From Octopus vulgaris (taxonomy: Eukaryota), in contig OX597822.1 in the NCBI GenBank assembly GCA_951406725.2, forward strand, positions 51,894,001 to 51,958,000: DNA of 64,000 nucleotides. Direction: 5' to 3'. Made by a program: the position numbers and the translations under genes. Below are positions 14,879 to 43,762 of this stretch, piece after piece. The notes under the pieces are model-generated. The model was not told the origin of the DNA, searched no databases, and saw only the letters and a list, made by a program, of their open reading frames with translations. Position 1 is the stretch's first letter; each line of letters begins with the position of its first letter.

Positions 14879-15293
14879 ATTTCTTTATTGCCCACAAGGG
14901 GCTACACACAGAGGGGACAAACAAGGACAGACAAACGGATTAAGTCGATTATATCGACCCCAGTGCGTGACTGGTACTTATTTAATCGACCCCGAAACGA
15001 TGAAAGGCAAAGTCGACGTCGGCGGAATTTGAACTCGGAACGTAAAGACAGACGAAATACCTCTTTCTGTAATACCCATAAGGGGCTAAACACGGAGGGG
15101 ACAAACAAGGACAGACAAACGGATTAAGTCGATTATATCGACCCCAGTGCGTGACTGATATTTATTTAATCGACCACGAAAGGATGAAAGGCAAAGTCGA
15201 CCTCGGCAGAATTTGAACTCAGTACGTAGCAGCCGACGAAATACTGCTAAGCATTTCGCCCGGCGTGCTAACGTTTCTGCCAGCTCGCCGCCT
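14879..15293 (-). mobile_element. SINE family A with tandem duplication of its 3' ~180 bp
   Basis: Head at 15293. Body and tail occur twice (14879-15060 and 15061-15240). Imperfect TSD TG(G/A)TGAAGTAT(C/T)CTT. Confidence 0.88.
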
Positions 15294-30882: not shown

Positions 30883-33129
30883 CACTGGTCAACAAAATGA
30901 AACTTCTTTTAATCATCAGAGTTGCAGATTGACTTTTCTGGTTAATTTCTGGTGCTGATTATGAATCTGGAGTCCGATCTCCTTTACCAGTTCACATTTA
31001 CGTGTTAATAATACCTGCTGTATTAACGTATAATATACGTAAAGCATGTCTATATAAAGTATATTGAATACAAGATACGATAATTTCATGGCTTTTTATT
31101 GTACAAAATTACAGTTATTGTGTACAAATAAGTTAGAATACACTCAAACTTAAAAACAACTTAAAATCTTTGAGATTTGGACTTTCTATAGTGTTTTGTC
31201 ACGGGTTCATCCTTGCATAACATCCAACAGTTGTCAGCTAACATTCCTGCATTCCAAAATCCTTGATATCTTTGTTACATCTATGAAATATCTTGATGGA
31301 AGCGTTCCCTTTGCTCATCAGACACTATTCTAAGGTTCTCTACAAAAACGTCCAGATGTTAATCAAGGAAATGGACTTTTAGTGACACCCAACATCCTAT
31401 TGTAGCGTAGGAGTCTAGAAGACATTTCACTCCATTTCCAAACTCTAGAGATTTCTTGTTGCCTAGGAAATTTTCACAGAGCCATTTGAAGGATTCCCAG
31501 GCTTTAAGCTCAATCTCATCCAGTGTTGTGAGGAAGAAGTTGTTGTCCTTCAAGAGTTCTTTTATCTGCGGACCTATGAATATGCCCTCCTTCAGTTTTG
31601 CCTCAGAGATTTTTGGAAATTTGGCCTTCACATTATCAAAACCTTTTGAGCTTTTCCTGGCAAGTGTCTTCACGAATTGTTTCATAAGGCCAAGCTTTAT
31701 GTAAAGAGTGGTAAGGAGAAAATTTTCTGGGTTTAAAAGTGGCTTACTCTAACCGCTAGAAACTCCCGGTTCATATGATTTTCGCAAAGGCCACTCTGAT
31801 TGCACTTAGTGCTTGTTAGTGGCACGACTGTCCCATAGGCATAAAAAGCAACAATATTTCGTGAACCCAGATTGCATTCCCATCAACATTCCAATCACCT
31901 TCAAGTCGCCACATATTTTCTAGCTGTAGTTTGTATACTTTATAGCATTGAGGAGTACTCGCATGTTTTCATAACACTCCTTCATGTGCACTGAATGTCC
32001 TATGGGAATGGATGGTTTCTCACTGCCATTGTGTAGTAGTACTGCCTTGAGGCTTTTCTTAGATGAATCAATGAATAAGCGCCATTCCGCTGGAACATGC
32101 TCTTTGAACAAACAGCGAAATAACTCATCGGTGTTATTACTGAAACAATGTGGTCCATCAACAGAGAAGCATGAAGTCAGATCCCTATTTCTCTTCCTGA
32201 AATGAATAATACAAACATCTTTTTTAAGCAGACACTTTTCTTGTAGGCGTGATGCTAATAGTTCAGCTTTATTCCTCGACAATGATAAGTCTCTAACTAT
32301 ATCATTTAACTCTCCTTGAGAAAATTTCTGTGGTACGTCTTCATTTTCAATCATGAAATCTGCATCCACTTCGGTGTCTTCCACAGCAGTAGTATTTTCT
32401 TCAGGAAGTATACCTTCGTCATACATCTGAAGGCCATTTTCTGGTGGTATTGGAATAGGAAGATCATCATCGTTGTGTGGTACTGGTATTCTTGCTGATT
32501 CCAAGTTGGGATACACAATCTTATGTTTGGTCTTTACAGTAAACCCACATTCATTAGCGTTGCAGAAATAACAATCCATGAAATGATTCTTTGGCTCTCT
32601 CCATATCATAGGTATTGCAAACGGCATTGCTCTTTTCCTCGTATTTAGCCAATCCCTTAGTCCATTTGAACAAGCTGAGCAGATGATGTGCGGGGCCTAA
32701 CCCTTATCTTGATCCCTGAGAGAGCAGCCAAAGTATAACTGGTAGATCTTCTTGATTTCATTTGTGATAGCACGTTGCTGAGCTTTGGTGTTAAATGAAC
32801 TACAGACATGACAAAACATATCAGGACTGTTCTTGCAATGCATTGACATCCTGAGTAAAATTTGATGATGATGATGACTTGGCACCTTAAACAGAAAAGA
32901 AAAGATTATGAAAACATAAAATTACAAAATGAATGCAAATAGTTATAAAGCAGAAGTCAGAATTTACCTGTATAAGACGTTTACGTGTAGCGATATTGCT
33001 GATAGGATTTATATACCTCTCTTATCTCATCAGAAAAACTGTGCCTGATAGAAGGAAACCAATTACATTTTTGAAATATGCAGACAAAACTACATATAAA
33101 ACAACATATAATATTCCAGTTGACTAGTG
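30883..33129 (-). mobile_element. Full-length Chapaev3-type (CMC superfamily) DNA transposon, 2247 bp
   Basis: TIRs CACTGGTCAAC and GTTGACTAGTG. TSD TTA (3 bp) at 30880-30882 and 33130-33132. It encodes a decayed transposase. Confidence 0.85.
31170..32849 (-). pseudogene. Chapaev3-like transposase, disrupted by several in-frame stops
   Basis: MSMHCKNSPDMFCHVC...PHIICSAC...MPFAIPMIWREPKNHFMDCYFC...EWRLFIDSSKKSLKAVLLHNG...CGDLKV..GFTKYCCFLCLWDSR...IKLGLMKQFVK...SLKVHFL..H...SDEQRERFHQDI. Spans ORFs 32697-32885, 31920-32627 and 31359-31685. Confidence 0.85.
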
Positions 33130-42545: not shown

Positions 42546-42730
42546 ATATATATAAAGTAGATAAATGGTATAACAAGGCACCAATATTTACTGGAAAATA
42601 CCAATCGATATAAATACGACGCTATTATGGAGCTATCCTTTACTGGAAAGTAATACATTTATATATATATATATTACGGAGATGTACTCGCATAGCAAGT
42701 AATTTGATCTGAGATCGTGTGCTGAAACGA

Positions 42731-43022
42731 AAATAATTGCAGCGTGGAAGGTGTTTATAAGCCATTTAAGAAACACACAAAAGCCGTTCGATTCACTTCA
42801 ACATTTAAGTTTAATTTGTCAAAATATTTTCGTCGCTAAAATCCGCGACCTGTTCACTGACAAAAATCCGAACACTTGTCCGTGTTCGGATTTTTATCAG
42901 TGAACAGGTCGCAGATTTTAGCGACGAAAATATTTTGACAAATTAAACTTAAATGTTGAAGTGAATCGAACGGCTTTTGTGTGTTTCTTAAATGGCTTAT
43001 AAACACCTTCCATGCTGCAATT

Positions 43023-43026
<4 letters not shown>
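42731..43026. mobile_element. Near-perfect fold-back element (145-bp arms, 6-nt loop), each arm carrying a variant HHR
   Basis: 42731-42875 pairs with 42882-43026 with only about 4 mismatches by eye. The element is bounded by (TA)n tracts. Confidence 0.92.
42816..42863 (-). ncRNA. Hammerhead-like ribozyme with G3-C8 compensatory core swap
   Basis: Minus strand reads TTGTCA-GTGAACA-G-GTCGC-GGATTTTA-GCGAC-GAAA-ATAT-T-T-TGACAA. A mirror copy lies on + at 42894-42941. Confidence 0.7.
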
Positions 43027-43073
<47 letters not shown>

Positions 43074-43122
43074 TGTATGTATGTATGTATGTATGAATGT
43101 AAGTATGTATGTTTTTATATAT

Positions 43123-43181
<59 letters not shown>

Positions 43182-43762
43182 ATGTATGTATGCGCATATA
43201 TATATATATATAAATATGCATGTATGTGTGTGTATATTTATACGTATGGATATACTTCACATTAACAGTGTGAGAAGAACCCTGATCATATGACAAAATG
43301 CGTCGTGTTCTTGCTGCTGTAGTCATTTATTATTCTGGTGAAAAGCTTCTCTGTCTGTTATAAATAAAATGCAATCAATGCTTTTCCCATTCATTCAATT
43401 CCTTTTTATTCTAAGTCTGGTAATGTACAATGATATCGGAATTTGAATATGTTATATGAAATATTATGGACGGAAACTGTAAACTAAATGCGCAAGCTAA
43501 ATGATTATATGTGATAAAGGCATTCATGAGATACCGTACAATGACTGTAAACAAGAGGCTTGCCTGACAGGATGAGGCTAAATAATCCTGCCTTCAATGA
43601 ATGATGCATGATTAAATAAATGAAATGCACTCGGCATAAATGTATGGTATTCTGATAATGTTCAATGTTCTACAAGGAGACAAGAAAGACATATATCCCC
43701 ATCACAGAGGAAATCCTATGATTTGCAGTCACACACACACACCTACATACACAGATATATGC

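Follow-up and report, generated by a model that had tools for sequence, protein, structure and literature searches.

A near-perfect hairpin in the genome of Octopus vulgaris is most probably a dead insertion in which two short pieces from the 5′ part of a Penelope-like element stand head to head, each carrying a family-wide G3–C8 minimal hammerhead for which cutting is predicted only in dimer form. Judged by its sequence, the motif is a hammerhead homologue, a natural G3–C8 variant of the minimal, dimer-type hammerhead of Penelope elements, and this family-wide, long-kept core is found beside a canonical sister family in one genome. The hairpin and its motif are real but are not a stand-alone ribozyme switch, and a sequence-only reading had overlooked the retrotransposon origin; longer copies hold an open reading frame (ORF) with a reverse transcriptase (RT) and a GIY-YIG domain.

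Structure of the insertion

Within the window, the 64-kb stretch of DNA that was analysed, the inverted repeat consists, as first read, of two 145-nt arms (42731–42875 and 42882–43026) that are 97% complementary and separated by a 6-nt spacer, with four mismatches (42861/42896, 42844/42913, 42744/43013 and 42734/43023). These arm coordinates were right, but 57 nt of element sequence had been missed: in an alignment to the partial tandem copy L069, the left arm extends to about 42673, so the feature is larger than 42731–43026. This 57-nt ‘tail’ (42673–42730, minus strand) is present on the left arm only and ends at the second of two 3′ end clusters found throughout the family. The remainder of the left arm (42731–42870, minus strand) is a 5′-truncated piece of the pseudo-LTR of the element, covering roughly +11 to +150 from its putative RNA start, and the right arm (42887–43026, plus strand) is an inverted copy that stops at the first 3′ end cluster and lacks the tail. 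The central 16 nt (42871–42886), comprising 5-bp arms and the 6-nt loop, are non-element sequence with differing letters in other copies, a 16-nt gap that we denote as junction filler. (TA)n, which most ends of the family abut, adjoins the hairpin at either end, as a microsatellite on the left flank of the insertion target (42659–42673) and a (TA)n-rich one on the right flank (43026–43217). The hairpin is a high-copy repeat and hence not a product of chance, and, as an insertion product, the locus itself is unremarkable.

The element ORF begins here, its first ~30 codons occupying 42674–42765 on the minus strand. Their ATG (42765), which is present in both arms 56 nt 3′ of the predicted cut site described below, also occurs in L069, in frame with the ORF sequence of the long copy L065. 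An ORF running through the motif was rejected, as stops interrupt all three frames and the ATG is downstream. Elsewhere in the 64-kb window we found no same-sense motif partner or ORF piece of the element, and the only nearby frames of at least 150 codons are simple-repeat-like. The window also contains a 258-codon frame (31920–32696, minus strand) with a Cys/His-rich motif and no Pfam match, presumably resembling a Chapaev-type DNA transposase, and a two-copy, 184-bp tandem (14880–15244) that looks like a dispersed SINE-type repeat.

The hammerhead motif on each strand

The minus strand holds an intact minimal type-I hammerhead motif (42815–42864), whose positions we numbered from the consensus of Cervera and de la Pena 2014 (PMC4209133). 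Its letters are those of the earlier reading: a 7-bp stem I (42864–42858 with 42821–42815), GUGAACA with G3 at 42857 and C8 at 42852, an extra G at 42850, a 5-bp stem II, GAAA, the palindromic AAUAUU (42828–42823) and U17 at 42822, with the predicted cut at 42822/42821. U4, G5, A6, A9, G12, A13, A14, the A15.1–U16.1 pair and H17 are all present, and GUGAACA stands in place of the CUGANGA box, so that the canonical core is lacking and the 3–8 pairing is retained as G–C. In a 60-nt piece of this strand, stems I and II both form (z = −2.9), with 3 of 200 shuffles folding equally well. The second motif (42893–42942, plus strand; G3 at 42900, C8 at 42905, predicted cut at 42935/42936) has the stem I mismatch that had been noticed, an A·C at 42896, and a loop II change besides, and its fold scores z = −1.4. 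The same G-to-A change in stem I occurs in L088, L310, L311, L313 and L315, and the template may already have had it.

Neither transcript of the hairpin would provide the working ribozyme that the earlier reading expected from either strand: a helix III is missing from the monomeric motif, which would need a same-sense partner, and the hairpin supplies none. When two strands are modelled, the best fold reaches −29.5 kcal/mol, whereas a dimer in which one core is active reaches only −22.3 kcal/mol and is thus the less stable, in agreement with reports that motifs of this kind have low activity or are assisted by protein. Clusters of same-strand copies, such as three arm copies within ~0.8 kb at G000:C28:5211942-5212753, could give a same-sense dimer partner.

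Rfam covariance models returned no hammerhead match at E ≤ 10 for the window motif, only sub-threshold microRNA and simple-repeat matches. It had been proposed that the variant would escape CUGANGA searches; that descriptor indeed cannot match it, but the swap is not the sole reason, since Rfam is also blank for the canonical-core motif of the sister family. The extra nucleotide after A9 and the UUU triplet are not peculiar to this motif: in the available parts of Cervera and de la Pena 2014 (PMC4209133), a nucleotide at that place and an NUH triplet belong to the usual make-up of Penelope minimal hammerheads, and only G rather than H there is atypical.

The G3–C8 swap across families

The arm matches many sites in the 2.8-Gb genome at 98–100% identity among the 40 of 905 candidates that were scored. 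An 18-mer spanning the core has 6,616 exact copies and 11,047 within one mismatch (reversed control, 0 and 1), and a search with no constraint at positions 3, 7 and 8 gave 5,665 matches, with G3–C8 in 93 of the first 100. The genome thus bears out the expectation that GTGAACA is the family consensus.

The canonical-core 18-mer has 12 matches, which led us to a sister family (3,475 candidates; 175 exact 33-mers) that shares both 3′ ends and resembles the first family at the start of the ORF. All seven aligned copies carry C3–G8; the 10.4–11.4 pair is A–U in place of G–C, and the 2.1–1.1 pair is G–C in place of A–U in three of six copies and A·C in the rest. This abundant, older Penelope-like family (L127–L146, for example, L141:1525-1760) has a canonical CUGAAGA minimal hammerhead. 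A third, old and decayed family, 71–79% identical to its query over most matches, has G3–C8 in 19 of 30 copies and C3–G8 in none, the remainder showing single changes or a gap (one of the 30 rows is the query and one a mid-age copy). Between the old and young families, N7, loop II and the length of helix III were altered, AATT having become AATATT; helix III is palindromic throughout, as AAUAUU in the young family, AAUU in the old and AGAUUU, with G–U, in the sister.

Through these changes, the commonest letter at U4, G5, A6, A9, G12, A13, A14 and A15.1 does not differ among the three families. The commonest letters of the old and young families agree at 34 of 38 columns of the motif; elsewhere the agreement is 45 of 67 in non-coding columns (p = 0.017 for the difference from the motif) and 62 of 76 in ORF columns. 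This comparison is biased toward motif conservation by a query chosen for its core pattern. Pairing across stem II and the 3–8 pair holds in 83 of 84 cells for 14 copies picked by hand (slid controls, at most 49%; stem I, which is not in register, was left out), and the covariation represents few evolutionary events in three families. L103, L104, L155 and L191, additional relatives in a decayed state, have motifs resembling a hammerhead and a similar sequence downstream, and probably represent further families; the first three of these have the canonical core.

With canonical C3–G8 in the sister family and covariation at 3–8, the earlier claim of a true compensatory swap stands. The accompanying statement that a double swap restores partial activity is also borne out, for an engineered Penelope hammerhead, in the available text of Frangieh et al. 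2024 (PMC11167929). The selection that the earlier reading proposed finds support at another level: the G3–C8 variant has probably been kept by selection on the element lineage, as the old family suggests, and none is supported on the hairpin.

Evidence bearing on cleavage

We think it somewhat probable that measurable cutting by the natural motif occurs, either in a dimer or with the aid of protein. The main competing explanation, which we consider less likely than not, is that a motif of hammerhead descent has lost its cutting, having been kept as a protein-binding or dimerization structure, or through overlap with an internal promoter just past the RNA start. Such a promoter is suggested by the position of the motif, which begins ~16 nt past the putative RNA start, but it would need neither the paired changes at 3–8, 10.4–11.4 and 2.1–1.1 nor a helix III that stayed palindromic when 2 nt were inserted.

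More generally, loss of cutting is favoured by copies that run through the cut site, which count against a needed cut. U17 is intact and in place in 8,412 copies, another letter occurring there in 133 and at the next position in 218. In two samples of 30, examination by eye confirmed 16 (5 with microhomology) and 5 true junctions, where a script had flagged 21 and 10. Nor do 5′ ends pile up clearly at the predicted cut site, where <1% of ~8,500 copies start.

Copies with a G3·G8 core point the same way. They number 236, compared with a combined 168 copies that have T or A at position 8, and are about ten times commoner than comparable transversions (C3·C8, 26; two other C/G transversions, 19 and ~13). 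They occur on all subfamily backgrounds (G000 genome-wide; L111–L118 and L322–L341), so a paired 3–8 is unnecessary for every jump. Having apparently moved, such copies have G8 in both arms of four hairpins, three of which were picked for that, and in one arm of four others. We rejected a single ancestral intermediate lineage as their source, as they show all loop II types and have the older N7 letters in 4 copies, as against 189 with G3–C8. Their excess fits the normal insertion in vitro of ribozyme-dead mutants of the anole element, for which the available parts of Frangieh et al. 2024 (PMC11167929) record no RNA-seq reads ending at the site.

Against a complete loss of cutting stands the constancy of the eight core letters in three families, and the engineered double swap is partly active in the portion of that study available.

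The parent element

Long copies continue upstream through a ~1-kb repeat-rich 3′ UTR into a GIY-YIG frame. Among six regions taken for long open frames, L065 has a frame of 1,025 codons with YVDD, DKSG, a CX3CX2C linker (residues 896–903) and, at its C terminus, a GIY-YIG domain. The GIY-YIG match scores 25.4 bits against a Pfam cut-off of 22.6. Pfam RVT_1 does not match the L065 ORF directly, but the frame shares 63% identity with an RVT_1-matching fragment and 54% with an O. vulgaris protein named RT-domain-containing; a PDB sequence search with the ORF gave no match. This single ORF, RT followed by C-terminal GIY-YIG, is found in the relatives L065–L070 and is absent from the window.

The arrangement of L065, with an arm downstream of the ORF and a 1.8-kb inverted, tailed copy upstream, repeats the layout of the window on a larger scale. 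In L069, a partial tandem, the motif stands on both sides of the ORF, which is the pseudo-LTR position. Further features of elements with a C-terminal endonuclease are found: a partial tandem, an inverted 5′-truncated copy, a one-sided tail and a microsatellite target. The CX3CX2C linker points to the Neptune/Nematis type. A second RT–GIY-YIG element (L031:2192-4203, minus strand), 52–63% identical to the L065 protein, adjoins a copy of the family; by eye, its truncated 3′ part has no hammerhead.

Copy ends and inverted pairs

The copies share defined ends. Two 3′ clusters, ~57 nt apart, mark where 121 of 130 distinct arms stop or how far they reach, and 23 of the 27 distinct arms with AGATG begin exactly there. 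Sixteen of the AGATG-starting arms have an extra G where the source has C, although in 8 of the 16 the partner arm could supply it. An extra G at the end of a cDNA can arise by copying of the cap, and these starts with their extra G suggest a capped RNA start. Just 5′ of AGATG (L018:1470-1500 and L069:1695-1725), the sequence looks like the 3′ end of an intron, with a branch-point-like motif, pyrimidines and AG, as has also been reported beside the Penelope hammerhead of Drosophila virilis; we found no matching splice joint in the contigs examined, and we take the stretch to be initiator-like as well.

Inverted pairing is the rule. A partner lies within 1.5 kb at 21 of 29 distinct best loci, and a 106-locus set holds 48 rows of head-to-head pairs, a few of them fragments of one locus, with variable junctions and, in 43 of the 48, a tail on exactly one arm. 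Arms of different loop II subfamilies meet within one pair in L083, L098 and L172, and differences between arms are enriched at subfamily columns (19 of 265 versus 155 of 4,418, p = 0.006, for partly linked columns picked from the same data), which argues that at least some pairs were made from two templates. In the contigs examined, short inverted pairs vastly outnumber ORF-bearing sequence. Four contig sets show no alternative letter at ≥5% inside the core, but cover is lower there and we attach no weight to this.

This prevalence bears on the function proposed earlier for the hairpin, a selected locus whose double-stranded RNA masks the ribozyme on either strand, which we regard as very unlikely. 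Masking would occur if the locus were transcribed, given a folding energy of ~−240 kcal/mol for the 296-nt hairpin, whichever strand is taken, and of −13.8 kcal/mol for the motif alone; with one motif and its antisense buried in each transcript, the locus is predicted to be inert as a ribozyme. But the hairpin is the usual product of inverted, truncated Penelope insertion, its plus-strand motif has a stem I mismatch, and its surroundings offer no same-sense partner or ORF piece and only simple-repeat-like long frames. A foldback DNA transposon (MITE) or a microRNA hairpin with a chance resemblance to a hammerhead deserves almost no credence: a long inverted repeat in TA and weak Rfam microRNA matches far under the gathering score recall one, but MITEs and foldback transposons have symmetric terminal inverted repeats and fixed ends, whereas here the outer ends are made asymmetric by the tail, the centre varies, the arms continue into an RT–GIY-YIG element and the covariation across families fits a hammerhead.

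Two further candidates were set aside. Non-LTR retrozymes consist of head-to-tail tandem units with a hammerhead in each (available part of bioRxiv 10.64898/2026.07.22.740005), and the head-to-head copies of the window rule them out. Seven matches from a metagenome scan, all GC-rich and without stems I and III, were dismissed as chance.

A proposed model for insertion

Taking the hairpin as a dead Penelope-like insertion, we suggest the following course. The element RNA would start, capped, at AGATG in the pseudo-LTR, with the motif at about +17 to +66 and the ORF start at about +116. The RT-endonuclease would nick both target strands at (TA)n, and copying would begin at two internal sites ~57 nt apart, so that short copies would be cDNAs of the first 150 or 208 nt of the RNA. 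Two cDNAs, primed on opposite strands, would then join head to head at their truncated ends. The templates would be mostly uncut RNA; cutting, if any, would involve two same-sense motifs paired through AAUAUU, probably with the assistance of the element's own protein, and would be slow. Read-through RNA at the present locus would fold into the long hairpin and remain uncut.

A more speculative extension, which we consider improbable, is that the G3–C8 core represents a hammerhead of reduced activity, retained over a long time, and that two element RNAs pair through its palindromic helix III, that a dimeric RT-endonuclease copies both into opposite target strands to give the inverted Penelope insertions, and that G3·G8 copies accumulate as uncut RNA makes the better template. 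If true, it would link two unexplained features of Penelope elements, their ribozyme and the inverted structure of their insertions.

Relation to known systems

The motif agrees with those of Cervera and de la Pena 2014 (PMC4209133) in its pseudo-LTR site, the extra nucleotide between 9 and 10.1, G10.1–C11.1, a palindromic 15.2–16.2, the NUH triplet and thousands of dispersed copies; opposite-strand pairs are mentioned there too. It differs in its GUGANCA core, the available parts of that work giving C3–G8 and U3–A8 only, as well as in its 7-bp stem I and 5-bp stem II and in having G rather than H as the extra nucleotide.

Another close parallel is PAc, a Poseidon element of the green anole (available text of Frangieh et al. 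2024, PMC11167929), which likewise has a hammerhead near the ORF start, two ORF-internal RT start sites with the tail lying between them, and an AT-rich target of which both strands are cut and extended. There the C3G/G8C double change, engineered, partly rescues cutting, whereas here G3–C8 is natural and fixed. The octopus tail is ~57 nt long compared with 30–40 nt in PAc, the ORF starts 56 nt past the cut site and not inside the motif, and a Zn-finger linker is present, unlike in PAc. The available sections of Craig et al. 2021 (PMC8557442) document that Penelope-like elements can have truncated copies in inverted orientation, a tail on one side only and (TA)n as target, and the octopus element shares with the Neptune/Nematis type described there the RT, a CX2-5CxxC linker, GIY-YIG, partial tandems and an inverted 5′-truncated copy. 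It differs in that short inverted pairs far outnumber ORF-bearing sequence in our contigs.

Natural covariation of the 3–8 tertiary pair has a precedent in the U3–A8 hammerheads of Perreault et al. 2011 (PMC3088659, available in part), but unlike those natural variants, G3–C8 requires two transversions. U3–A8 is the only natural 3–8 covariation in the literature searched (Perreault et al. 2011, and Cervera and de la Pena 2014 with parts of its supplement), and G3–C8 appears as an engineered, partly active variant also in the available part of Kalweit and Hammann 2013 (PMC3884650). We found no natural G3–C8 or octopus case in the literature searched, which included accessible portions of PMC6765202, PMC6155905 and bioRxiv 10.64898/2026.07.22.740005; Lunse et al. 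2017, on dimeric hammerhead variants of Penelope elements, lies outside that scope and could contain one.

These comparisons bear on a standing puzzle, for hammerheads are reported in all canonical Penelope elements, yet are dispensable for insertion in vitro. They also indicate that descriptor-based counts of genomic hammerheads can miss whole families. A single octopus genome preserves a fossil series, from a canonical C3–G8 sister family through an old G3–C8 family to young G3–C8 subfamilies with more than 11,000 copies within one core mismatch, and it supplies natural wild-type, mismatch and canonical variants of the motif. The series gives natural support for a 3–8 tertiary pair in swapped orientation and argues for long retention of the hammerhead fold in these elements.
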